64,000 nucleotides of DNA from an uncultured virus (IMG/VR IMGVR_UViG_3300035698_023946) (taxonomy: Duplodnaviria; Heunggongvirae; Uroviricota; Caudoviricetes), in the IMG/VR virus record IMGVR_UViG_3300035698_023946. One strand, given 5' to 3'. This document shows positions 4,274 to 64,000 of the stretch, piece by piece. The translations under genes were made by a program, and so were the position numbers. The first letter of the stretch is position 1. Every line of letters starts with the position of its first letter. The notes beneath the pieces were generated by a model that was given only the letters and a program-made list of their open reading frames with translations, was not told the origin of the DNA and searched no databases.

Positions 4274-4360
4274 ATCTGAATGGAGAAATTGGAAAACTCA
4301 CTATGGTCGTCAACATAGTAATCTTAATGATTTGTCGGTTCGAGTCCGGCTTCAATTTCA
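4274..4360 (+). pseudogene. degenerate class-II tRNA with 8-nt anticodon loop
   Basis: D arm GAG/CTC, stem CTATG/CATAG with loop GTCGTCAA, variable hairpin AATC/GATT, intact T arm GTCGG-TTCGAGT-CCGGC, mismatched acceptor, no CCA. Confidence 0.6.
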
Positions 4361-6557: not shown

Positions 6558-6986
6558 ATGTACGACGCAGGAAACATCTTCATCGATAATCGTAAAAATT
6601 ATGATAATATCATCGAAAAATCAAGTTATACGCCTTTCATTTACAAAACAACAACCGCGATGAGAAAAACAAGTATTCCCATGGAGCCCGGACCAATGAG
6701 AGAAGACCTTGCCGCATGGAAAACATATAATGTCATCAGGCATCATGAAGAAGGAAGATTCCTCGTCATTCATGTTGATTTTCAATCAGCAGTTTACGGA
6801 GAGAAGGTCTTAGTCTTCAAAAATGCCTCCTTGGTGGACTTGATGAACCAGAAGGAAATCAATCCACGCATCGGTGAATCAGACGATTCTTTCATTCGTC
6901 CAATCGCTGATTTCTTCGCAAACGAAGAAGGCTGGTTATTGGCAGTAGGTTTAGTTTCAAACCTATCAGGAGAAGAAGATGTTTAA
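6558..6986 (+). CDS. hypothetical protein
   Basis: 142-aa ORF coupled to neighbours by overlapping stop/start. Confidence 0.6.
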   Translation: MYDAGNIFIDNRKNYDNIIEKSSYTPFIYKTTTAMRKTSIPMEPGPMREDLAAWKTYNVIRHHEEGRFLVIHVDFQSAVYGEKVLVFKNASLVDLMNQKEINPRIGESDDSFIRPIADFFANEEGWLLAVGLVSNLSGEEDV

Positions 6987-7368
6987 AGCCTTGGTGTTAG
7001 ACGACATGCCGGAAAGACACATACATTTTCAACAAAGATTTGCTGAGGTCAACTGCGAATCTGAGCATGTCTTCAATGTCGAAGATTGCATTGAGAGATT
7101 GGAGGAAAGGGCTTATGACATCATCTTCCTAGATCATGACTTAGGAGGAGAAACGATGGTCAGTTCTTCTCGTCTAGACACCGGTTCCGAAGTGGCCAGA
7201 TGGTTTGTTGAAAACGAGCACCTGAACAAAGAAACGCCAATCATCGTTCATTCATTCAACCCGGATGGTGCGAGATACATGTGCGAGACATTCGGGAAAC
7301 AGAGCGTTCACATTCCCGGCTGTTGGATCAAAGAGTTTTTTCATAAGAATGTCAAAGTGCCGACGTAG
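6979..7368 (+). CDS. stand-alone receiver-like domain (cyclic-phosphate-processing REC type)
   Basis: VLDD...IIFLDHDLG...GSEVARW...IIVHSFNP pattern. Confidence 0.75.
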   Translation: MFKALVLDDMPERHIHFQQRFAEVNCESEHVFNVEDCIERLEERAYDIIFLDHDLGGETMVSSSRLDTGSEVARWFVENEHLNKETPIIVHSFNPDGARYMCETFGKQSVHIPGCWIKEFFHKNVKVPT

Positions 7369-7434
7369 CTCAACTGGAAGAGTTTTCCCCCGGTACGGGA
7401 AGGGTTGATGGTTCAAGTCCATCCGTTGGCTCCA
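7359..7434 (+). tRNA. tRNA-Thr(GGT)
   Basis: GCCGACG/CGTTGGC acceptor, TTCCC-CC-GGT-AC-GGGAA (C33), TCCA. Confidence 0.88.
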
Positions 7435-7452
7435 TTTTTACAACAAACAATC

Positions 7453-8415
7453 ATGTTAATGACAAGAGACAATTTCCGGCGAACGGTTCTTTCTATGACA
7501 AATGGACAATGCTCTTTTTGTGACGCTAGAGCCGTAGACACACATCACATCATGGAAAGAAAACTTTGGGACGATGAGGGTTATTATCTTGAAAATGGTT
7601 GCCCCTTATGTGAAACGCATCATAAATTAGCAGAAAGAAACATCATCACTCCAAACCAATGTAGAGAATCGATGGCATATGATAAATCAATTCTCCCAAA
7701 TCAATTTTCATCTATCAAAGATTATGACAAATGGGGAAAAGAACTAGAAATAAAAGAACATTTCAATGGTTGGATTAAATATCCTTCCACCATTTATTTC
7801 GACTTTTCACCGTCAAATGATACGAGCGAGATTTTTCCAACCGAAGAACTGGTGGATTGTCAATTAGCAATCACAATCAAAATGGATGGTTCTAATCTGA
7901 CAATGACTTCAGACCACATTGGAGCAAGGAACGGTTGGTCTGCAAAGCATCCATCATTTGACATGGCTAAAGCAGAACATGCTAAAATAAAAAAATTAAT
8001 CCCAGAAAATCTTCAATTATTCGGAGAGTGGTTGTACGCCAAACACTCCATTCATTACAAAGGAAAAATGTCTTTGAAAAATGGTTTGTTTCAAGTTTTC
8101 AATATTTATGACAAAGAATCTCATGAATTCTTGAACTGGGAAAAAGTGAAAAAAATTGCAAAACAAATAGGGTTTCAGACAACTCCTATAGTAAAGGAAA
8201 ATGTAAATTATGACAAAGACTGGAAATTGAGAAATGAATTAGAAAAAATTGGTAAAAAGGTCGTAGATAGTGGACATGAAGGAATCGTCGTCAGAAGTGT
8301 TTACTCATTCCATTATTCTCAATTTGAAAAAAGACTGGCAAAATATGTGAGAAAAAATCACGTTCAAACAAATAAACATTGGAGTAAAGGAAAAATTGAG
8401 CGAAATATACACTGA
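7453..8415 (+). CDS. HNH nuclease fused to ATP-dependent RNA ligase (Rnl2-like)
   Basis: N-term CSFC...DTHHI...NGCPLCETHH; C-term KYP, KMDGSN (motif I), FGEW, EGIVVR, AKYVR..HVQ. Confidence 0.85.
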   Translation: MLMTRDNFRRTVLSMTNGQCSFCDARAVDTHHIMERKLWDDEGYYLENGCPLCETHHKLAERNIITPNQCRESMAYDKSILPNQFSSIKDYDKWGKELEIKEHFNGWIKYPSTIYFDFSPSNDTSEIFPTEELVDCQLAITIKMDGSNLTMTSDHIGARNGWSAKHPSFDMAKAEHAKIKKLIPENLQLFGEWLYAKHSIHYKGKMSLKNGLFQVFNIYDKESHEFLNWEKVKKIAKQIGFQTTPIVKENVNYDKDWKLRNELEKIGKKVVDSGHEGIVVRSVYSFHYSQFEKRLAKYVRKNHVQTNKHWSKGKIERNIH

Positions 8416-21947: not shown

Positions 21948-23162
21948 ATGTCCTACGAAATCAAAGATGGAATCAAAGTGTGGGGAACCACAGACGACGA
22001 CACCGTTCAACAAATGAAGACTTGTCAGGAAACTGGGGATGTCTTTGACGTCGCCTTGATGGGAGACAATCACAAGGGTTATTCTCAACCCATCGGTGGA
22101 GTTGTCGCTTATCTGGGCATGATTTCTCCTTCCGGAGTTGGGTTCGATGTGGGATGCGGGAATCAGGCAACTTTGACGGATCTTTCATTAGAAGATGTCA
22201 AAGAAGACCTCCCAAAGATCATGGATGCGATTCAATCAACCATTTCTTTCGGAGTCGGGAAGAAGAACGTCGTTCCGGTTGAGGATGAATTATTCGACGA
22301 TCCTACTTGGGATGATGTTTTTGTTCTACGATCTTTGAAAGAATTAGCCAGAGAGCAATTGGGAACTGTTGGTTCTGGAAACCATTATGTGGACATCTTG
22401 CATGAAGAAGAAAATGACAATATTTGGATTGCAAATCATTTTGGTTCTAGGGGTTTCGGACATAAGATGGCCTCTGGCTTCTTGAACTTGATCAATGGAA
22501 GGAAGTTTAAAGATCGACTCCCCGGCGAGAAAATGGAATCTCCTCCCACACTCGTCGATGCGGGAAGTCAACTCGGTCAGGACTACATCGCTGCGATGCA
22601 ATTGGCAGGACGCTATGCCTATGCCGGTCGTGCCCATGCAATCGAACAAGTTCTAAAGATTCTTGGAGCAGGATCTCTGAAAGATGTCAAATGTCATCAC
22701 AATTTCGCTTGGCTAGAAGAACACGATGGCGAAAAAGTTTGGGTAGTTCGAAAAGGTTCTACTCCAAACTTTCCTGGACAGGAAAGTTTCATTGGTGGTT
22801 CGATGTGCGACATCTCGGCCATCATAGAAGGCAAAGATTCTGATGAATCCAGAGAATCCCTTTACTCCACCGTTCATGGAGCCGGAAGAATCATGTCAAG
22901 GACAAAAGCTGCCGGGAAGATGAATTGGAAAAAGAAAGTCAGAAAGACTGCGGGATTGATTTCTCCAGAGATGATGAAAGAATCAATTCAAGACTGGGGG
23001 TTGACCTTACGCGGAGCGGGGCTTGATGAAAGTTCATTCGTTTACCGTAAACTAGAAGGTGTATTAAAAGCGCATGAAGCAACTTTTGAAGTCAAACACA
23101 CTTTGAGACCTATCGGAGTTTGCATGGCCGGAGACGGTGAATTCGACCCCTACAAAGACTAA
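21948..23162 (+). CDS. rtcB: RtcB RNA 3'-phosphate/5'-OH ligase
   Basis: DNH.GY..PIGG, GVGFDVGCG, LGTVGSGNHY, HFGSRG.G, HHNFA, RKGSTP, STVHGAGR. Confidence 0.95.
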   Translation: MSYEIKDGIKVWGTTDDDTVQQMKTCQETGDVFDVALMGDNHKGYSQPIGGVVAYLGMISPSGVGFDVGCGNQATLTDLSLEDVKEDLPKIMDAIQSTISFGVGKKNVVPVEDELFDDPTWDDVFVLRSLKELAREQLGTVGSGNHYVDILHEEENDNIWIANHFGSRGFGHKMASGFLNLINGRKFKDRLPGEKMESPPTLVDAGSQLGQDYIAAMQLAGRYAYAGRAHAIEQVLKILGAGSLKDVKCHHNFAWLEEHDGEKVWVVRKGSTPNFPGQESFIGGSMCDISAIIEGKDSDESRESLYSTVHGAGRIMSRTKAAGKMNWKKKVRKTAGLISPEMMKESIQDWGLTLRGAGLDESSFVYRKLEGVLKAHEATFEVKHTLRPIGVCMAGDGEFDPYKD

Positions 23163-23380: not shown

Positions 23381-23923
23381 ATGAGTAAAAATGTAACTTT
23401 GGCAAATCTGTTGCGTAAACGAAAAAGCATGTCTGGAGTTCTGTCAACGGCCAGTAACCGTGCCATGCAGGGAGCCGTCGTAGAGAAGATCGATGGAAAT
23501 GTCGAGGTTCCGGATTTCAACACCTCCGAAAACATCGAAGCCTTTTCAAAAGGACAACACGATCTACGGAAGATCAAAGCAGCTGTGGCAAAAACCACAT
23601 CTTCATCTTTGGTAAAAATCCCAGATGAAATCGAAGTTCCTGAAGCAGGAACGGAAGTGTCCTTAACTCAAGCCATTCTCATCAGAGATGACTTGAAGGG
23701 GTACAAGAGTCTTCTTGAAAAAGTCACTGCTCTTTCCTCTGGGAGAGAGAAGCTTCGCGGATGGGGGCATACCGATGACACAATCGTTGAAAAGATTCGT
23801 GTCGGGTGGGATTTTAATGAATTAGTTGCAAAGATCGATAGAACACAAGAACAAATCGACAGTGTTGACGCACTGATTCAATTCACAGACAACACGATCA
23901 AGGTTGACGTTGACCTTGGTTGA
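23381..23923 (+). CDS. DIP1984-like helical (coiled-coil) protein
   Basis: TLANLL.KR N-terminus, SLTQAILIRDDLK, C-terminal IDRTQEQIDSVDALIQ..DNT resemble the DIP1984 family pattern; AAGGAG RBS. Confidence 0.6.
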   Translation: MSKNVTLANLLRKRKSMSGVLSTASNRAMQGAVVEKIDGNVEVPDFNTSENIEAFSKGQHDLRKIKAAVAKTTSSSLVKIPDEIEVPEAGTEVSLTQAILIRDDLKGYKSLLEKVTALSSGREKLRGWGHTDDTIVEKIRVGWDFNELVAKIDRTQEQIDSVDALIQFTDNTIKVDVDLG

Positions 23924-23952
23924 AGAATGACTGATGATCGTTCATCAGTCTA

Positions 23953-24160
23953 GATGTGGTTTGATTTTGTTGAGATATACCTCCTTTTGCCTTGAAAGCA
24001 AATGGACACGAAGGCTTGAAACCCTTCTCCTAATTTCTAAATGGAGCGATCAAGATTAATCCAAACAAGCACAGAGGAATTAGATCAGTCGCTCACACGG
24101 TAGCATTGGGCATTGCGTACAAAGCACAGGGTCATTTATCTCTCAGAATTAAATCTCATC
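23953..24160 (+). ncRNA. putative structured ncRNA downstream of the DIP1984-like gene
   Basis: Long closing helix 23953-23977 / 24137-24160 with several G-U pairs, enclosing multiple hairpins; no ORF of 60 aa or more. Confidence 0.7.
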
Positions 24161-24161
24161 G

Positions 24162-24194
24162 GCGGGTGGTCGGTTTTCCGGCCACCCGCTTTTT
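24162..24194 (+). terminator. rho-independent terminator
   Basis: GCGGGTGGTCGG-TTTT-CCGGCCACCCGC then TTTTT. Confidence 0.9.
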
Positions 24195-24258
24195 ATTAAA
24201 GTAATCGGCTGCATAATCATCGTATCATTAAAATAAACAGACGACATGGAGAAAAACG

Positions 24259-25170
24259 ATGAAAACAACATTTTGTTGTATACTAATCGCCATCTTAACT
24301 ATGGCGACATCCTTTGCAAATGATGTCCCCTTCATCTCTTGGCATTATGGTGATTTTCCCGAAGCTTTTGATGCCATAGGAGAAATTGAAGTAGGAGGAG
24401 AGATAGGGGATGCGTCATTCAGTATAGTTTTTGGAACTACCAGATCGTTTCTTTACTTAAACTTTGATTCTTTACAAAATATGAAATCGATCATTGGAGA
24501 CGCCTTCATTTCAGGAGCAACTGAAAACTCTACTATTTCCGTAGACATAATCGGATTAGTTTCTAGAGGAGTCATCTTAGATGAACGAGAAACTGAACGA
24601 AATGTAGAAGTTCAAAGTGAATTTCCAGGCAGAGTTTATGATCTTTACTACAACGGTTCCATAATTAGCAGTGGGACTCTTTCTGCAAACAGCTTTGGAG
24701 ATTTCATTTTTTCAATCCCTTACGAAATCGAAAGTGTGAAGTTGGAACATATTCCGTTCACACCCACTCCAACGTTCACATTGACATCAACTCCGACATT
24801 CACCCTCACAAACACTCCTACAAATACTCCAACGTTCACTCCAACATTCACTCGGACTTTTACTACGACAAACACCCCTACAGAAACGTTCACTCCGACG
24901 TTCACTTCGACAAACACTCCTACAAATACTCCAACATTCACTCAGACATTCACTCGGACTTTTACTACGACAAATACTCCCACAGAAACGTTCACTCCGA
25001 CGTTCACTCCGACACCTACGGCAACTGTGACAAGCACATTCACTCCAACTGCGACACCTACAGAAACCTTAATTCCAACACCGACGAAACGAAGGGGTTG
25101 GCCAAAGTGGTTGTATAGACTTTACCTCAGATGGTGGAAACATCATAATTGGCCGGAGACAGCGAGATGA
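24259..25170 (+). CDS. secreted Thr/Pro-rich (mucin-like) protein
   Basis: Signal peptide, ~110-aa TPT(F/N)T repeat stalk, basic/aromatic C-terminus. Confidence 0.8.
24808..25008 (+). repeat. 102-bp tandem duplication in the Thr/Pro repeat coding region
   Basis: ACAAACACTCCTACAAATACTCCAAC... recurs at 24808 and 24910. Confidence 0.8.
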
Positions 25171-25583
25171 AACGAATCTTAATGATCTTTTCTATGTTCA
25201 TGTCCGCAGCAGCATCTGATGCTGCGGAATTTGGATCGCTCATTCCAAATCAAGAATATATCGTTTACCTTGACGAAGTATTTAGCAAATATGAAACTTC
25301 TACTCCAGAAGGAACCTTACAAGTCACTTTACCAGAAGGTATGCACAAGATCCAAATAGCACCCGCAAGAAGCCGATTCGGTTCTCTCATTCCAAACCAT
25401 GAATATGAAATTTATGTAGACGAGGTATTCCAAACAATAAAGATGTCTGACGGTGAAGGGTCCCTTTCAGTTCATCTCCCTCATGGGATGCATACAATTA
25501 GGTTAAACCTTCATAAACCAAAAGACGAATGGCATGAAGCCATTTTTAAAATCTATGTAGAATGGATTGAACAAGTATTTTAA
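25167..25583 (+). CDS. secreted protein with two internal ~50-aa repeats
   Basis: Signal peptide; FGSLIPN.EY..Y.DEVF...EG.L.V.LP.GMH.I twice. Confidence 0.75.
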
Positions 25584-25584
25584 T

Positions 25585-26220
25585 ATGATTTTATGGACCA
25601 TACAACGTGAAGAAGACTGGAAGTGGTTTAAAAAAACAGGAAGATTCTACACAAAAAAACCACTTCACATGTATGATCGTGATTGGAACACATTTGAATG
25701 GAGGATGTGCTACGCCTGGATGATCGTACAAATGAGGAAAAAAATTGGGCCATCTCCAAAAGGGGTCAAGTGGCCAGTTTGGAGTTGGTATCAATATTTG
25801 GATCACAAGAGAAAAAAACCCGATCTTCGTTTTTCAGAGTTCAAGAGGTATAAGGAACCGATGGCAAGAATTGAACTGGAGATCCCAGATGAACGAGTTC
25901 TACTTTCAGATTTTCAACTTTGGCATATCCCCTTGAACAGAGGACTCATCGTCAAGAACAAGAAAGAAGATGATGATTTTGATAAACGTTTAAAAAAACA
26001 CATAAGTATGGAGGTTCATAAATACTCGAATGATAAACCTTATCCAGAGCCATTTCATTCGGAGATGATAAAGAGTTGGGAATTGATTTTCGAAATGAAG
26101 AAGTTCACCAATTCGAAATATGTAGGAGCTGATTCGTTTAAAGAAAAGGTGATTCAGGCCACCTTCTGGGAAGCCGAGATCGACCAAGTTAAAGATGTGA
26201 CTTTATTTTCAATGAAATGA
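25585..26220 (+). CDS. DUF3841-like protein
   Basis: LWTIQ...YAWM..QM...P.W.WY...PDLR...VLLSDF.LWH..LN...IQATFW. Confidence 0.75.
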   Translation: MILWTIQREEDWKWFKKTGRFYTKKPLHMYDRDWNTFEWRMCYAWMIVQMRKKIGPSPKGVKWPVWSWYQYLDHKRKKPDLRFSEFKRYKEPMARIELEIPDERVLLSDFQLWHIPLNRGLIVKNKKEDDDFDKRLKKHISMEVHKYSNDKPYPEPFHSEMIKSWELIFEMKKFTNSKYVGADSFKEKVIQATFWEAEIDQVKDVTLFSMK

Positions 26221-34535: not shown

Positions 34536-35048
34536 ATGAAAAAGAAACTTAAAAAACTAGGAAATCCAGTTCTCAGATCAAGATCTAGGATTGTTTTAAA
34601 AATCACTTCAAAAGTAAAAGAAACCGTCAACCACATGTGGGACATTTTAAACAAGTGTCCTACTGGAGTAGGTCTGGCAGCACCTCAAATCGGGACAGAC
34701 AAACGTATCATCATCGTCAAGGATGGAGACGAAAACATCTGTTTAATAAACCCCGTAATCGTTGAGGCGGATTTGGAAAAAGAAATCGAATTGGAAAGCT
34801 GTATGTCATTACCCAGAGTTCACTTAAAAGTTCCGAGAAGCAAAAAAATAAAAGTTATCGGCAAAAATCTAGGTAACAATGATGTTGAAATTGAAGCAGA
34901 AGGGCTGTTGTCTAGGACATTGCAGCATGAGATCGATCATTTAGATGGGATTCTAATAATCGATTACGCCGAACCTGAAAAAAGAAATGAAATTCTAGAC
35001 AACTTCGATTTTCCAAAAAACAATATTGAACGAAAACGAGTGAAATGA
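34536..35048 (+). CDS. def: peptide deformylase
   Basis: GVGLAAPQIG, ESCMS (EGCLS variant), QHEIDHLDG. Confidence 0.93.
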   Translation: MKKKLKKLGNPVLRSRSRIVLKITSKVKETVNHMWDILNKCPTGVGLAAPQIGTDKRIIIVKDGDENICLINPVIVEADLEKEIELESCMSLPRVHLKVPRSKKIKVIGKNLGNNDVEIEAEGLLSRTLQHEIDHLDGILIIDYAEPEKRNEILDNFDFPKNNIERKRVK

Positions 35049-38307: not shown

Positions 38308-38847
38308 ATGTTCGTTAAAATTCCAATCAGACAAGCTATCAAGTTCTTTCCCAAAGGAACGATCAATAAGATATTCAAACAAAAGATAAGAACTCCGAAT
38401 GGAATCCCATTAAGCATACTTAGGAATCATTCAAAAAAGATTCTTTGTTACCGAGATTGGGATTATGTGTCGAGGCACTACTCTCTCGACACGCACTTCA
38501 TGCTCACATACGCAGATAACCTAAATTGGAAAAACATTTCACGATGTCAAAAGTTAAGTGAAAAAGACATGGAATTTTTTCATGAAAAATTATTATGGAA
38601 AGATGTGATAAAAAATCAAACTTTAACGAGGAAGATAATTGAAAAAGAATATGAAAATCGATGGTGGTTCACCGTTTCTAAATACAGTAATCTGAAAGCG
38701 GATGATGTCATCTACTTTAAAGATAAACTTCTATGGGGTGTTTACTTGAGTAGAAGAGACGTTTACATAGGGAAAAAAATACTCAAAAATTGCAAAGATG
38801 TCATTCCCGATCTTTTCTTCACGATGCACTCAAAAAAGCTTCAATGA
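38308..38847 (+). CDS. tryptophan-repeat protein
   Basis: Repeated L.W..(I/V)S..Q.L(S/T) units. Confidence 0.7.
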   Translation: MFVKIPIRQAIKFFPKGTINKIFKQKIRTPNGIPLSILRNHSKKILCYRDWDYVSRHYSLDTHFMLTYADNLNWKNISRCQKLSEKDMEFFHEKLLWKDVIKNQTLTRKIIEKEYENRWWFTVSKYSNLKADDVIYFKDKLLWGVYLSRRDVYIGKKILKNCKDVIPDLFFTMHSKKLQ

Positions 38848-51227: not shown

Positions 51228-52526
51228 ATGATACGATCAACTAAACATACTCTCACTTTCGCCAATCAATCAAAACAACAGGATCTTTCTGTTTTGATTC
51301 AAAACTATCGTTTAATCCTTCAGCGAACTGTTGATCATCTTTGGAATAACAATATTAGAATTTTCAACAAAAAACACAAATTAATTTATCATTTCAACAT
51401 TCAGAATAATCAATTGAATCTTCCTTCCATATTGGATAATGATTTTCTCAAACAATTTCAATCTCATGATTTCACCATGAGATTGATTCAATGCATTGGA
51501 AAACAAGCATGCTCAATGATCAAAACAACTTTTGCAAAGAGAAGGAAACAATTGTTCAAATTGAAACAGTTGCAAAGAGAAGGAAAAAACACCAAGTATT
51601 TGCAAAGAAAAATCGATTTATTTCCACTTGTCAAACCAAATTGTGAAAATGTCAATCTGGAATTTGATTCTAGATTTTTCGACATTGAAGAAACCGAAGG
51701 TCTTTTTGACTGTTTCGTTCAAATTAAACACATCGGTCAAAAGAAAAAGATCAGAATTCCAACAAAACATACGAAAGTTTCTCGCCATTGGGCTTCCATG
51801 GGAAGACCGATGGGCTCCATTCGCCTGGGAGAAAAATTTGTTTCGTTCAACTTTGAAGTTCAACCCAAAATATGTCATGGCACACGCACCGTAGGTGCGG
51901 ATCAAGGCATTGTGACATGCCTCACATTGTCTGATGGTCAAATCACCAAACCCTGTCCTGACGGACATGATTTGAATTCTATTTTGGAAGAATTCACACA
52001 TCAAAAGAAAAAGAACAGAAAAACCTTTCGTTCAAGACAGTCTGGATCAAGTGGCTTCAGAAAAAAACAAGAACATCGAAAGAATTACATCAACTGGTCT
52101 ATCAATCAATTGGATCTGTCAAATGTCAAAGAACTTCGATTGGAAAAGTTAAAACAAATTAGAAAAAGAAAAAAGAATTTCAAGAATAACAATCGTTGGA
52201 CTTATCGTGAAATAAAACAAAAAATAGAAAACAAATGTGAAGAATTAGGAATCAAATTCTTGGAGGTTCCAAATGAATTTCGTTCTCAAAGATGTTCTTC
52301 ATGTGGTTTCGTTCGTAAATCAAATAGAAAAGGAAAGACGTTCACTTGCTCAGGCTGCGGTTTCACCGCAGACGCGGATTTGAATGCAGCTTCCAATCTA
52401 GAGATTGATCTTTTCGAGATCCCTTTCAAGGTACGATCATCAAAGATGAATCTAGAAGGTTTCTATTGGAAACCAGAGGGTTTGTTTTTGAAGACTGGAA
52501 AGCGTATAGTCTTCCAGACAAGTTAA
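51228..52526 (+). mobile_element. tnpB: TnpB/Cas12f-like RNA-guided RuvC nuclease (IS200/IS605 family), no tnpA
   Basis: RuvC-I VGADQG, RuvC-II LRLEKL, Zn finger SQRCSSCG...FTCSGCG, RuvC-III DADLNAASN. Confidence 0.88.
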
Positions 52527-52603: not shown

Positions 52604-53968
52604 ATGCAAATTTCTGCTCTTTACTATCCGAAATACGATAAAAACTGGTACTCAACAAGTATACGGGGAAAGCTGTTAAATAAACAGTTTCCTATGTGCG
52701 GAGTATATGACTTTAATGATGAGTTGATCTTGATTCAGCATCTTACCCTGTGCAACGCCATAGGTGTTAAAAATCTATTTTTTGAAGTAAATCAAGAATT
52801 TGTAGAAAACGGTATACTTGTCAAATTGAACGATATCATCAATTCGAATGAGATAAACATGAAAATCTCATTCATGATAGATTCAAAAGATATGATAAAG
52901 TTATTAAACGATATCGACGAATCTGATAACCTTTTCAAAATGAAAGGCAAAAAGGTGATTTTAACGAGAGGGTTATCGGAAGTGAAAGAATTACAAGACT
53001 TCTACACGATAGGGGATTTAATGAATTTCTCATACGAAAATCCTGACATTGAAGTTTTGAAACAATTTGACGGGATAACGGGTGTAAATGTTTTTCCAGA
53101 GACATCGAATATAACAGAATGTGTTAAGTCTTTCGACCTGATGCACCAAAAGTATTCAAACTATTTAGATGATACAAAAGTAGACATTTGGCCATGCCTA
53201 TTCCCGAGAATAAATAATTACATCAATCATGAGAGCAATATCCCGAACGGAATTCATGATGATTCTGGGCAATTATTGACGAGACAATTGAAGATGTTTT
53301 CCAATCATCCACATTGCATAATTTCATCTTTCAACAATTGGACAAATGACACTCAAATAGAACCCTGTGGAAATGAGGAATCATATCAAGTTTCAGAACA
53401 GTTAGATGAAAACATAAGTACGAACATGACCGATGAAAAACTTTACAGAAACTATTGTTTTGATTTCGTGAAAATAATAGAACGATTCACAAATCAGCAA
53501 GGGTTCATCAGAAACACAGAAAGCCCTATCATTTCCACCAAACTGGAATTAGATATTTCAAGAAAAAAGACAATCAATATCTCTTTCTTCTATGACGATT
53601 TTTCTGGATATCTATTCAAGCTATGGAACGAGCACATCATCTCGTATCTGAAGATAGAAGATGATGAATTAATATATTTCAAGCAGGGATTCATTAAGGG
53701 GGCAATTGAGAAAAGAATTTGCAAACTAGACAAAGGAAAAGAATACAACATTGAGATCTGCGATCAACCACAAAATTACTATATCAATATAAATGGTGAA
53801 GAGATGCTTCCTGATGAATTGAAGTTTTTAACACAAGACACAAAAAACCTCATATTATTTGATGGAAATCTTTCAAACGAGAACATCGTCGGAAGTGTTA
53901 TCGTCAAAAACACAGACGACAATAAAACCATTTTAACATACCCCTCTGAGGAAATGAAATATGAATAA
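52604..53968 (+). CDS. GH99-like protein, probably catalytically inactive
   Basis: Paralogous to the GH99-like domain of the 1396-aa ORF; SFNNWTNDTQIEP versus SFNEWYEDTQIEP. Confidence 0.65.
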   Translation: MQISALYYPKYDKNWYSTSIRGKLLNKQFPMCGVYDFNDELILIQHLTLCNAIGVKNLFFEVNQEFVENGILVKLNDIINSNEINMKISFMIDSKDMIKLLNDIDESDNLFKMKGKKVILTRGLSEVKELQDFYTIGDLMNFSYENPDIEVLKQFDGITGVNVFPETSNITECVKSFDLMHQKYSNYLDDTKVDIWPCLFPRINNYINHESNIPNGIHDDSGQLLTRQLKMFSNHPHCIISSFNNWTNDTQIEPCGNEESYQVSEQLDENISTNMTDEKLYRNYCFDFVKIIERFTNQQGFIRNTESPIISTKLELDISRKKTINISFFYDDFSGYLFKLWNEHIISYLKIEDDELIYFKQGFIKGAIEKRICKLDKGKEYNIEICDQPQNYYININGEEMLPDELKFLTQDTKNLILFDGNLSNENIVGSVIVKNTDDNKTILTYPSEEMKYE

Positions 53969-55793
53969 ATTCACGATATTGATGCCTGTCTTAAATTTGA
54001 AATATTGGACCAAACATGCGATAGAACACATCAACAAAAATACGCATACAGATTTCGATCTAATCGTAATCAATAATGGGTGCAACAAATCCACAAAAAG
54101 AATGTTAAAATCCTTGAAAGAAGATGAACTCATTCATTCAATCATTGACAATTACGAGAATCTGGGAAGTGCTTATGCTTGGAATCAAGGGATCGAACAA
54201 TGTGAAACAGAAAACATCTGTCTACTTCATTCCGATTCATTAGTTTCTGAAAATTGGGAAAAGCCATTATTGAAGACTTTAGAAAACGACACAGATTTCG
54301 CCTGTTCTATTCCAACCACAAATTACGCAGATGAAACTTTTGTCAGATACAATGACCTCTTTTTAGACCAATACACAAAACTGAAACCAAGCAATAAGTC
54401 TATAACGACCTATGAACAGATTTCAGAACTATTAGAAACATTTTATGAAGGAAATATGAATGATTTTTCTAGTTCATTATCAAAAAAATTCTCCGACTGC
54501 ACGAGGTACCTTTCTGAGATATCTACCTTTTGCATCATGTTCAGAAAAAAGATATTCGACGATCATGGATTATTCGATACAGATTTCTTCCCACATTTCG
54601 GATTTGAAAAGCTGTTCTTCTATAATCTTCAATCAAAAGGTTACGAAGCCGTTTGTTGTCTAGACTCATATGTCCATCATAATGGGAACTCTACTTCCGA
54701 TGGTCCTGGGATGAACATACACGCCACAGTAGAAAAGAATATTCAATTGTTGGAAGAAAAGATTCAACAAATAGACTACGGCAAATCTCAAGTAATAACT
54801 AAAAAGGAAAAAGAAGAGATACTCTCAAATGATAGGCAATTAACAAACAATATATTAATGAATCCTAATGTTAAAAAAATACTATGTATTAGGAATGGCG
54901 ATATTGGAGACATTTCTCAATGCCTACTTTTATTAAACAACTTGAAACAAATAAAACGGGGTCTTTCTATAGATTTCATGACCGATGAAACTCATTTCGA
55001 TTTGATAAGAACTTTCAACGTAGTAGACGAATTGATTACTTTTCCTGTTAAGTCTTTTGAAGACTCCATGTACGAGAACGTTGTGACTCATATCTATTCT
55101 AAGTATCAAAACAAGTATGACGCTATCGTGAACTGGACTCTCTATCCCGAAAAGTTTCCAAACGATGGAGCAAATCGTTTAAGTGTTTTTCAAAACTACT
55201 TAAACGTTGATCGTCTATCAGTCGATTTAAACAAAGATATTTCAAAGCTAAACATTCAATTCGAATCCACAGAGATAAAGAAATGCAAGTCATATTTAAA
55301 CAGTAAGAAAACAAACATTCTAATTCTTCCTGATGGATCTTCGAAAGAGAGATCGATCCCGATAAAAAGTATTGCAAAATTCTATTCAAATCTAGACTTA
55401 AACAAATTTGAATTGTTATACTATAGTGCCCTGAACCCCTTCCCGGAATTAGGTCCGGCACCAATTCATAATCCACTGAATGAATTAGAAAAATGTTGCT
55501 TGATGAATCTGTGTAATTTTGTGATTACGACAGACAGCGAACTTCTTCACTTATGCTACCTCCTCAACAAGCCTTTCATTGGAATCTGTTTAGAAGACCA
55601 CCCGAAGCAATCAATTCTCCATCTCACAGAATCTAAACAAAAATTCAAGATTCTTTACGAGCCGGAATTAATCAGCCTTTCTCAAATAACTGAAGATGAT
55701 TTAACTGGGAATAAAATGACAATCCTATTTGAAGAACTGTTATCGGGAAACACTTCTCAAGAACGAGAAGACAAAGTTGAAGACTTCTTTTAA
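53961..55793 (+). CDS. GT2 + GT9 fusion glycosyltransferase
   Basis: N-half paralogous to 47220..48110 (PTTNYADE, SYVHHNGNSTSDGP); C-half RNGDIGDI...ITTDSELLHL. Confidence 0.8.
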   Translation: MNKFTILMPVLNLKYWTKHAIEHINKNTHTDFDLIVINNGCNKSTKRMLKSLKEDELIHSIIDNYENLGSAYAWNQGIEQCETENICLLHSDSLVSENWEKPLLKTLENDTDFACSIPTTNYADETFVRYNDLFLDQYTKLKPSNKSITTYEQISELLETFYEGNMNDFSSSLSKKFSDCTRYLSEISTFCIMFRKKIFDDHGLFDTDFFPHFGFEKLFFYNLQSKGYEAVCCLDSYVHHNGNSTSDGPGMNIHATVEKNIQLLEEKIQQIDYGKSQVITKKEKEEILSNDRQLTNNILMNPNVKKILCIRNGDIGDISQCLLLLNNLKQIKRGLSIDFMTDETHFDLIRTFNVVDELITFPVKSFEDSMYENVVTHIYSKYQNKYDAIVNWTLYPEKFPNDGANRLSVFQNYLNVDRLSVDLNKDISKLNIQFESTEIKKCKSYLNSKKTNILILPDGSSKERSIPIKSIAKFYSNLDLNKFELLYYSALNPFPELGPAPIHNPLNELEKCCLMNLCNFVITTDSELLHLCYLLNKPFIGICLEDHPKQSILHLTESKQKFKILYEPELISLSQITEDDLTGNKMTILFEELLSGNTSQEREDKVEDFF

Positions 55794-62272: not shown

Positions 62273-62927
62273 AATTTGATAAATCCATATTTATTTCAAT
62301 ATTAGAGCTTTTATTTTCCCCATTTTCAAATGAAGGAAATCTCTTTATATCGATTACCATTTCTTTCATTTTGATTTTACTAAGACCATGCTCCATATCC
62401 AAATCAACATCTGGATAATAAATATGTGTCAAATCCTTCGGTACTGCCACAATATTGTAATTCTTGAAAATATCTGATAACTTCTTTATATTAAACAACT
62501 TCAAATGACGATAAACTCTTCTACCGAGCTTTCTTTTAATCTCCTGCCTCAAAAACTCTATGTCATCAGATACCGCAACAAATGATCTAATATTATACTC
62601 TATGTCATCGTGAATATCTACCAGATATGCTTCAAAAAACCTTGATTCAGCATTCTTTGCGACCTTATTTTCAAAAACACTTTCATCATCTTTGTTTTTT
62701 AATTCTCCAAACTTATACGGGTATAATTCCGGTATTCTTTCGCATGGAAAGTCGTTCAAATCTACCGAACAAGAAAAATCTTGATAATCATTTTCTTCTA
62801 AGTTTTCTTTCTTTTTACAACCGTTATACTTGCACCCCACACAAGAACTCCACCGATCATGCAGATATTCCACCGTTTTCTCTGCTTCAATAACTTCATA
62901 TTCATCACTACACCCTTCTTTCATCAC
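62172..62927 (-). CDS. hypothetical protein
   Basis: 251-aa ORF. Confidence 0.6.
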   Translation of the reverse strand: MMKEGCSDEYEVIEAEKTVEYLHDRWSSCVGCKYNGCKKKENLEENDYQDFSCSVDLNDFPCERIPELYPYKFGELKNKDDESVFENKVAKNAESRFFEAYLVDIHDDIEYNIRSFVAVSDDIEFLRQEIKRKLGRRVYRHLKLFNIKKLSDIFKNYNIVAVPKDLTHIYYPDVDLDMEHGLSKIKMKEMVIDIKRFPSFENGENKSSNIEINMDLSNYDEVEKIELPKAKRKRNPKPKSSGTKRRRRTEG

Positions 62928-64000
62928 AACGCTCCTCTCTTTTTTGACTTATATTTATCTACAACTTTTTGCAATTTGTCCCAAATCTTAAAACGTTCAA
63001 TAGTATCTCTTTTATTTTCTTTTCTTTTTCTATCTCTATATTCGTGCCTATTTTTCATAGAATCATAAAGATGTTGATCGATCTCCATGTTTTGAGATAT
63101 TTTACGAATTTTACCATTCATTAATGCTGCTACCGTGCATATCGAACTACCGTTACCTAAAAACCTAACAGTTGATTCAGAACTTATTTTCTTCTTATCA
63201 ATCAGATCGTTTAAAACACATCTATGTTCTTGATCGAATTCATTCATGAAACAATTGACCAAGATAGAATCATTATCTGCTAATTTAACCTTAATAGGAT
63301 AATTGACTTCGCTATGTCTCATGACGGTTATACCCATCCTTCTTTTATTAACTTCGTCTTCAAGCTCTTCGCCTAAAGGTATCACATCTAAAAAGTTCAA
63401 GCTCTCATAATAATGATAAGCAGATTCGAAATTCAAATCAAAAGCCTGACTAAGAACTGACTTCATGTAATTCCTATTATCTCTCATGTTAATTCTATCA
63501 ACAAACTCTTGCTTATAGTTAATAGCTGCATCAAGAAAGTCTTGAGAAGCAGTTAATTCAAATTCTATCAAAAGTCTTGGTGCTCTAGCAATTATGAGAG
63601 GATTGTTTCTTATTGCAACATTCGCATCGATAGGGCATCTAAGAATCTTATCTTCTGTCAAATCTTTAAGACCCAATCCGGTGGCATCAATCATTTGCTC
63701 TTGAAAAATGTCGTAACAAAGAGTATTAACGGTGAAGTCCCTTTCGTAGATATTCCTATTCAACCATGTCAATTCCACTCCCATCCGATTCAATTCACCG
63801 TCGATATCGAAATGTACCAAAGGATTCTGAGCTGATTGAATTTCAATCTCACAACCATCCGAGATCATATGAATAGTTCCGGTGTTATCGAATTTACCCG
63901 GCTCACCAGCACCATGTTGGACCGCCAAGGTGTCTGCGAATTCGAAGTTCTTACCATTTTTTAAAATCAGGTCGATGTCTCCCTCACTAACACCATAGAC
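62924..64000 (-). CDS. CCA-adding / poly(A) polymerase family nucleotidyltransferase (5' end outside window)
   Basis: Frame stays open to the window edge, giving GDIDL (motif A); ERDFTVN (motif B); DATG.GLKDL...LR. Confidence 0.85.
   Translation of the reverse strand, partial: VYGVSEGDIDLILKNGKNFEFADTLAVQHGAGEPGKFDNTGTIHMISDGCEIEIQSAQNPLVHFDIDGELNRMGVELTWLNRNIYERDFTVNTLCYDIFQEQMIDATGLGLKDLTEDKILRCPIDANVAIRNNPLIIARAPRLLIEFELTASQDFLDAAINYKQEFVDRINMRDNRNYMKSVLSQAFDLNFESAYHYYESLNFLDVIPLGEELEDEVNKRRMGITVMRHSEVNYPIKVKLADNDSILVNCFMNEFDQEHRCVLNDLIDKKKISSESTVRFLGNGSSICTVAALMNGKIRKISQNMEIDQHLYDSMKNRHEYRDRKRKENKRDTIERFKIWDKLQKVVDKYKSKKRGAL

Follow-up and report, generated by a model that had tools for sequence, protein, structure and literature searches.

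Large phages carry arrays of tRNA genes together with RNA-repair enzymes, which allow them to survive host attacks on translation. Within this RNA-repair toolkit, we know of no RNA-protein pair besides Ro60 and its Y RNA. Y RNAs lie next to RtcB in Salmonella, as described by Chen et al. (2014; PMC4201824), and phage tRNAs that act against anticodon nucleases are likewise documented (PMC10264068).

The window analyzed here, i.e. the whole stretch of 64,000 nucleotides from an uncultured virus, looks like part of a large phage genome. Its first 21 kb contain 15 tRNA genes and one tmRNA according to ARAGORN, and Rfam agrees on 11 of these tRNAs and on the tmRNA; no tRNA or tmRNA cloverleaf is called between 20769 and 64000 by ARAGORN or by the Rfam models RF00005/RF00023. 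The sole serine tRNA found by ARAGORN is Ser(CGA), and an earlier note on this DNA was right that no tRNA-Ser(UGA) is visible in the window. The RNA-repair genes comprise a metallophosphatase (1319-2011), a cREC domain (6979-7368), an RNA ligase (7405-8415), an RtcB RNA ligase of 404 aa (21948-23162, + strand; Pfam PF01139, E 2.1e-63), and a CCA/poly(A)-type nucleotidyltransferase (62924-63928). Parts of the stretch occur in five DNA sequencing runs labeled as salt lake metagenome (shares 0.45 to 0.12), whereas no RNA run is listed with it, and the contigs of four runs over 23381-24700 are identical to the window and, as such, offer no variation for testing RNA pairs.

Other contents of the window include a tRNA at 4274-4359 (+) to which ARAGORN assigns no type and a four-letter anticodon, cgtc; this implies an 8-nt anticodon loop, and the Rfam tRNA model has no entry for this tRNA. 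Directly after tRNA-Ser(CGA) lies a short tRNA-like piece (2119-2178, +) with an acceptor-like stem, a T arm, and CCA, and its tmRNA model score is 35.4 bits, below the gathering score of 47. The window also encodes a TnpB/Cas12f-like ORF (51228-52526, +; PF07282, E 3.2e-18), a peptide deformylase (34536-35048, +; PF01327, E 8.2e-43), and a DUF3841 protein (25567-26220, +; E 4.8e-28), the latter being the second gene downstream of the RNA described below. A large glycosyltransferase/glycosidase cluster, which is unusual phage cargo, spans 38830-48110 (-) and 53961-55793 (+) and includes a GH99 domain in a protein of 1396 aa.

A spacer of 335 nt separates a 180-aa ORF (23381-23923, +) from the ORF at 24259-25170, and small ORFs of 20-41 aa are present within 23930-24250. 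In this spacer, at 23986-24046, the earlier note saw three tandem hairpins inside an ncRNA and proposed them as mimics of tRNA anticodon arms. The ncRNA itself is borne out: a strand-specific fold, a conserved core, and a covarying helix (P3) identify a real structured RNA on the + strand. We find that 23986-24046 is best explained as the variable 5' arm of this RNA, which is about 210 nt long as predicted (23953-24160, +) and belongs to an undescribed family.

Upstream, the RNA has one constant partner, the gene for the uncharacterized 180-aa protein. The protein matches NF038048 (E 7.7e-6) and PF20935 (E 0.0029), both below curated cut-offs, and on these matches is a distant putative member of DIP1984/DUF6847. 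The sole match of its AF2 model (pLDDT 88.7) is an uncharacterized structure, 3KDQ (TM 0.68-0.81). A word-indexed search yields 5 relatives, while a full profile search of 1.84 billion representatives returns 21 clusters at E <= 1e-30, followed by a gap before the general DIP1984 family. A protein alignment retrieved seven metagenome loci (L001-L007), and a later search of IMG/VR with a 30-sequence alignment (A6) added one locus, L015, on a 147-kb contig. Protein identity across the loci is 36-57%. No match was obtained among cultured phages (50,697 records) by blastn of 23900-24260 or by tblastn of the 180-aa protein, in IMG/VR with the 180-aa protein alone, RtcB alone, or alignment A1, or in GTDB contigs with alignment A1.

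The RNA follows the DIP1984-like gene in all eight loci with downstream sequence (the window, L001-L005, L007, and L015), always in the order gene, RNA, intrinsic terminator; L006 ends within the gene. These loci were found via the protein, so the gene linkage is partly due to the search route; pattern-only scans of IMG/VR and GTDB contigs gave no free-standing copies of the RNA, but also no true copies of any kind. Beyond the pair, little is shared: when ORFs of >= 60 aa from L001-L007 are compared with the window by tblastn, only the DIP1984-like protein and one CCA-enzyme match are found, and the downstream genes differ in every locus. In the window the neighbor is RtcB, with the cREC domain, the RNA ligase, the CCA-type nucleotidyltransferase, the 15 tRNAs, and the tmRNA on the same stretch. 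Elsewhere, the neighbors are a metallophosphatase and an RNA-ligase OB domain (L002), HNH, two tRNAs, a methyltransferase, and a SPASM protein (L004), a CCA/poly(A) polymerase with an HD domain (L007), and a HAD phosphatase with HNH (L015). In L005, a YrlA-like RNA (127-246; 39.9 bits, below the gathering score of 69) and a tRNA (263-334) are accompanied by Ro60 (1008-2732; TROVE plus vWA, E 3.6e-60), which lies directly upstream of the DIP1984-like gene. The RtcB that the earlier note highlighted is indeed adjacent in the window, but the window is alone in this among the five loci with upstream sequence: none is found in the upstream sequence of L002, L004, or L005, and in the 147-kb record of L015 RtcB is about 38 kb from the RNA. 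The pair recurs on large, tRNA-rich phage contigs, moves as one unit through different RNA-repair and tRNA neighborhoods, and is best explained as a functional pair. A riboswitch or attenuator of the downstream gene was considered and set aside, as the downstream genes vary and inspection by eye shows no alternative pairing that involves the terminator.

In the minimum-energy fold, 23950-24162 forms a single long imperfect rod with one side hairpin. The rod is closed by a long helix, P1, in which 23953-23977 (+) forms 22 pairs with 24137-24160 (+), and a long closing helix is present in every relative, with unrelated sequences. Upstream, directly after the stop codon of the 180-aa ORF, lies a hairpin, H0 (23929-23950, +), formed by an inverted repeat (I2, 100% complementary) with 9-bp arms, a 4-nt loop, and no U tract; similar post-stop hairpins are found in L001, L002, L004, and L015. 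A hammerhead reading of H0 was rejected, as the CUGAUGA in this hairpin is not conserved among relatives and Rfam lends it no support. Downstream, the RNA is directly followed by an intrinsic terminator (24161-24195, +) with a 13-bp G+C-rich stem and then TTTTT, and a terminator-like hairpin with a U/A-rich tail also lies 3' of the core in L001, L002, L004, L005, L007, and L015 (by eye). The fold is specific to the + strand. Specifically, the window RNA has a folding energy of -60.9 kcal/mol (z -3.3) on the + strand vs -47.5 (z -0.4) on the - strand; across six lineages the + strand reaches z -3.8 to -5.4, lower than the - strand in each, and the L015 RNA has a z of -5.5.

The conserved core spans 24039-24131 (+) and consists of AAAUGG (24039-24044), helix P3 (24042-24050 with 24088-24097), an apical domain, CACACG (24094-24099), a 26-nt segment, and ACAGGG (24126-24131). 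The motifs AAATGG, CACACG, and ACAGGG are common to the window, L001, L002, L004, and L007, with a CACACG-ACAGGG spacing of 26-27 nt in 5 of 5; the L003 copy is cut by the contig end, and L002 and L003, the nearest two contigs, differ by substitutions only. A covariance model of the core (R1) was built from six training sequences, the window included, and its effective number of 3.2 makes the E-values rough. R1 recovers all six training sequences, among them the window itself (24027-24143; 99.9 bits, E 2.1e-26), and outside the training set it matches L005 (32.3 bits, E 2.7e-6) and L015 (25.2 bits, E 1.7e-5), while none of 87 unrelated pattern-hit loci match.

P3 shows covariation. All 63 cells of the 7-row model alignment are paired, with compensatory change in 6 of 9 pairs. 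For each of five measures, the observed value is attained by none of 500 shuffles, and in slid controls 21-46% are paired. Seven lineages are available, and the alignment was fitted to R1, which favors P3, yet the pairs are legible in the raw sequences (AGCGAU/GUCGCU, ACUGCC/GGCAGU, AUUGCU/AGCAAU, GUUGCC/GGCAAC, and AUCUG/CAGAU). Three further helices, i.e. the local hairpin of the 26-nt segment, a pairing between linker and segment, and a pairing between the flanks of AAAUGG and ACAGGG, each fit some lineages, with no common register across alignment A5 (by eye). For example, the partner of the 26-nt segment is the 5' linker in the window, L001, and L004, but in L007 and L015 the segment forms a local hairpin of its own. 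The linker before the core (J; 24028-24038, +) pairs with 24101-24110 in the minimum-energy fold of the window, and no single register of this pairing is held across relatives.

An internal direct repeat, AAGCACAG(A/G)G..ATT, at 24067-24081 and 24122-24136 (+), connects the P3 apical loop with the ACAGGG motif. A similar paired likeness is visible by eye in L001, L005, and L015, and suggests that the core may have arisen by module duplication.

No Rfam match at gathering score is found in the interval, no credible match at E <= 10 in 23800-24350, and no match for the RNA at E <= 0.01 in a scan of the whole window (Rfam 15, 4227 models). No published description of the motif was found in open-access main texts on Ro60, Y RNA, and phage structured RNA. 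Pattern searches were also carried out. A 20-letter core pattern gave six matches in IMG/VR, all coding-like or unstructured and none scoring with R1, and its reverse complement gave 0 in IMG/VR and one G+C-rich chance match in GTDB contigs. A P2-loop pattern was unspecific (at least 119 matches), and 0 of 80 loci compared match R1. Judged by the comparison of sequences, the RNA is a new conserved family that is linked to the DIP1984-like gene.

The letters on which the anticodon-arm proposal was built are all present, i.e. TTTGC-CTTGAAA-GCAAA at 23986-24002, GAAGG-CTTGAAAC-CCTTC at 24010-24027, and TTTCTAA at 24034-24040. They fall in the 5' arm between P1 and the core, which varies in length and sequence among relatives, with two arm hairpins in L001, L002/L003, and L007 and one or none in L004 and L015. 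Hairpin 1 (23982-24006, +; core 23986-24002, loop CUUGAAA) has the 5-bp/7-nt pattern ascribed to it, but its five pairs have a probability of about 1% (0.011-0.013) in the full-RNA equilibrium ensemble, since 24111-24131 takes up both of its arms in the minimum-energy rod. In isolation it reaches -1.8 kcal/mol, and it also forms when the 5' part is folded alone; enforcing it in the full RNA costs 2.9 kcal/mol (-58.0 vs -60.9). Its position is that of the first arm hairpin in L001, L002, and L007, and it could be a first arm hairpin (P2a) of the window RNA, an assignment that the folding models leave uncertain. It aligns to a window-specific insertion, the first arm hairpin loops elsewhere read CAAGC, CAUAA, and UCCG, and a first arm hairpin is missing altogether from L004 and L015; across the sequences compared, hairpin 1 is not conserved.

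Hairpin 2 (P2, the last arm hairpin; 24010-24027, +) is predicted to form with pair probabilities of 0.992-0.998 and recurs in L015, although the loop on its 5-bp stem, CUUGAAAC at 24015-24022, has 8 nt and not the 7 of an anticodon loop. A 12-nt block, GGCUUGAAACCC, made of the P2 loop and its closing pairs, is unchanged in this distant relative (GGCTTGAAACCC is identical at L015 3060-3071), and no other identical run shared by the two RNAs is as long. By contrast, 2 of the 5 stem pairs are changed on both sides (G-C to U-G and A-U to G-C), and the two proteins are 36% identical, which together indicate that the P2 loop is under selection. No consistent partner sequence for this loop is seen within the RNAs (by eye).

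The earlier note expected 7-nt loops with varying triplets in homologues, and this is found in one relative lineage only. L002/L003 have a predicted canonical hairpin, AAUCC-UUUCUAC-GGAUU (5 bp and a 7-nt loop U-U-UCU-A-C), and L004 keeps CCUUUCUAUGGAUU, with the loop letters UUUCUAU, on a weak stem of two flanking pairs. In most relatives, the loop as folded is not of the 7-nt U33 type, which is the outcome that the note had set against its own proposal. The P2-equivalent loops in relatives have 8, 7, 7, 4, 3, and 4 nt, the shortest as folded being UAAU in L001 (4 nt), UAC in L007 (3 nt), and CCAG in L005 (4 nt, by eye); the window and L015 have CUUGAAAC. The corresponding stems range from 2 to 9 bp. 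A looser 7-letter window, Y-U-U-N-N-A-N, fits 6 of 7 lineages only with closing pairs opened, and L005 only by taking an earlier hairpin; it was not counted as support. The supposed third, Arg-like hairpin does not hold up: folded alone, 24027-24046 closes a 12-nt loop with a stem of only 4 bp, and the 3' letters of the hairpin (24043-24046) are instead part of the covarying P3. Its UUUCUAA lies inside linker J and 24039-24040.

Counts in the window place these hairpins in context. Anticodon-arm-like hairpins (5 bp with <=1 G-U pair and a 7-nt loop Y-U-NNN-R-N) occur 45 times on the + strand, i.e. 20 in tRNA/tmRNA genes and 25 elsewhere, vs 17.9 +/- 4.1 in shuffles. About 0.06-0.08 are expected per 208 nt, and hairpin 1 alone thus lies within chance. 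The two strands together have 37 copies of CTTGAAA vs 28 +/- 6 expected, with 24 on the + strand; a second copy within 30 nt, as for the two CUUGAAA copies 24 nt apart in the RNA, has a chance of about 0.02. CUUGAAA is, we assume, the loop of bacterial tRNA-Ser(UGA), and P2 is unlike the arm of the window's own tRNA-Ser. The arm hairpins are best explained as elements of the ncRNA and not as a tandem set of anticodon arms: of the three drawn by eye, one is a real conserved hairpin, its geometry is not that of an anticodon arm, and the tandem arrangement is not conserved.

A short motif, ATAAGTTT, occurs once before the RNA in L001 (783-790), L002 (3489-3496), L003 (1227-1234), L005 (3706-3713), and L007 (92-99), which hints at a separate promoter there. 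All sites are on the gene strand, and each of these loci and L006 (675-682, about 130 nt upstream of the gene) has exactly one. The motif may be a promoter-like element of that phage group. It is absent before the RNA in the window and L004, where the RNA may thus be simply a 3' UTR, and it is not enriched in the window.

We propose, at even odds, that the RNA is an ncRNA that binds protein, with the DIP1984-like protein as its probable partner, and that it has a role in RNA repair or tRNA upkeep during infection. The RNA would bind a protein, most likely the DIP1984-like one, which has no known RNA-binding feature, and would act within the phage's RNA-repair and tRNA-maintenance set. The recognition surfaces would be the conserved single-stranded letters, i.e. 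the AAAUG/ACACG internal loop, the GYACA apical loop, GGAACA, ACAGGG, and the P2 loop. A helix of 20-24 bp fits the general picture of RNase III substrates, and the closing helix of this RNA, which has that length, could be a processing site that frees the RNA from the mRNA. We found no literature on DUF6847, and nothing related by title on DIP1984, in a search of open-access main texts. A DIP1984/DUF6847-like gene that is accompanied by a conserved structured RNA across phage neighborhoods with no other relation would provide a first functional lead for this protein family and add a candidate RNA family to phage RNA biology.

The same arrangement might reflect a cis-acting 3' UTR element of the DIP1984-like mRNA, i.e. 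a processing or stability structure (an RNase III substrate or a 3' protective fold) or an autoregulatory operator, that would not function as a free RNA. We regard this as possible but not likely: it would account for an RNA that, in every case, comes after the stop codon of the gene and before the terminator, for a closing helix of 20-24 bp, and for the lack of a separate promoter motif in the window and L004, but invariant single-stranded motifs with a fixed 26-nt spacing are rare for stability elements when the proteins are 36-57% identical, and in L005 the core lies about 385 nt after the stop codon with its own ATAAGTTT motif upstream. That the structures are functionless chance hairpins in an A+T-rich spacer is very improbable, as this suits hairpin 1 alone, which is within chance, and leaves aside the P3 covariation, the conserved motifs, the strand-specific stability, and the recurrence in 8 of 8 loci.

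It is rather doubtful that hairpin 2, together with the window-specific copy in hairpin 1, displays anticodon-loop look-alikes, of the UGA type in the window and L015 and of the UCU type in L002, L003, and L004. These would bind or block tRNA-targeting nucleases or anticodon-modifying enzymes, or report on them. Several findings agree with such a display, i.e. the 12-nt P2 identity between the window and L015, their longest shared run despite differing stems, the 5-bp/7-nt U-U-UCU-A-C hairpin at the same place in L002/L003 with the loop letters kept in L004, the two CUUGAAA copies 24 nt apart, the tRNA and RNA-repair genes around the loci, and the documented action of phage tRNAs against anticodon nucleases (PMC10264068). 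However, the conserved loop has 8 nt in the window and L015, last-arm loops of 3-4 nt are found in L001, L005, and L007 on stems of 2 to 9 bp overall, and strong conservation is confined to the core, which does not resemble a tRNA (neither tRNA nor YrlA models match); RtcB adjacency is not conserved either, and P2 differs from the window's tRNA-Ser arm. An extended version appears comparably doubtful: a two-part phage module, made of the DIP1984-like protein and a scaffold RNA of about 210-260 nt that shows an anticodon-loop look-alike (UGA type in the window and L015, UCU type in L002-L004), directed against host tRNA-targeting defense nucleases. Such a particle would detect, soak up, or block these nucleases alongside the phage tRNAs and RNA ligases. 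Still less probable is a strict Y RNA, whose closing helix would bind the Ro60 ring and tether Ro60 to a partner. The closing helix is made of the 5' and 3' ends, Ro60 lies directly upstream of the DIP1984-like gene in L005, and Y RNAs adjoin RtcB in Salmonella (PMC4201824). Against this, YrlA (RF02553) has no match on the RNA, L005 already has a separate YrlA-like RNA, and no TROVE is found among the 91 ORFs scanned in the 64-kb window or in the 147-kb record of L015 (estimated 77% complete); the missing YrlA match and the missing Ro60 weaken this explanation.

The preferred reading, a protein-binding ncRNA paired with the DIP1984-like protein, can be placed among known systems as follows. 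With the tRNA anticodon arm (5-bp stem, 7-nt loop Y32-U33-NNN-R37-N38), hairpin 1 agrees by sequence and P2 of L002/L003 agrees fully, whereas hairpin 2, the sole conserved hairpin, has an 8-nt loop in place of the 5-bp/7-nt geometry, and the RNA has no other tRNA element. The setting in a large phage, where a tRNA array occurs together with repair enzymes, is like that of phage tRNAs that counter anticodon nucleases (Iyer et al. 2021, PMC7824862; PMC10264068); those, however, are complete, chargeable tRNAs, and this RNA is no tRNA. Motifs of unknown function found by comparative genomics, of the type collected in Rfam, are likewise defined by a helix that covaries, by loop letters that do not vary, and by constant association with a gene, although this RNA matches none of the 4227 models of Rfam 15. 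YrlA/Ro60 differs in that our RNA has no YrlA model match (E <= 10, 23800-24350) and no T-arm/D-arm module, and in that the linked gene is DIP1984/DUF6847-like and not TROVE, which stands beside the RNA in L005 only; specifically, membership is matched neither by the covariance model nor by an adjacent Ro60 in the window or L015. The likeness lies in a phage-borne structured ncRNA with a long 5'/3' closing helix, placed beside RNA-repair genes (RtcB in the window, Ro60 and a YrlA-like RNA in L005) and co-inherited with one protein gene. By analogy, the RNA would work most like a Y RNA in a loose sense, with a terminal helix, one linked protein, and surroundings of repair genes.
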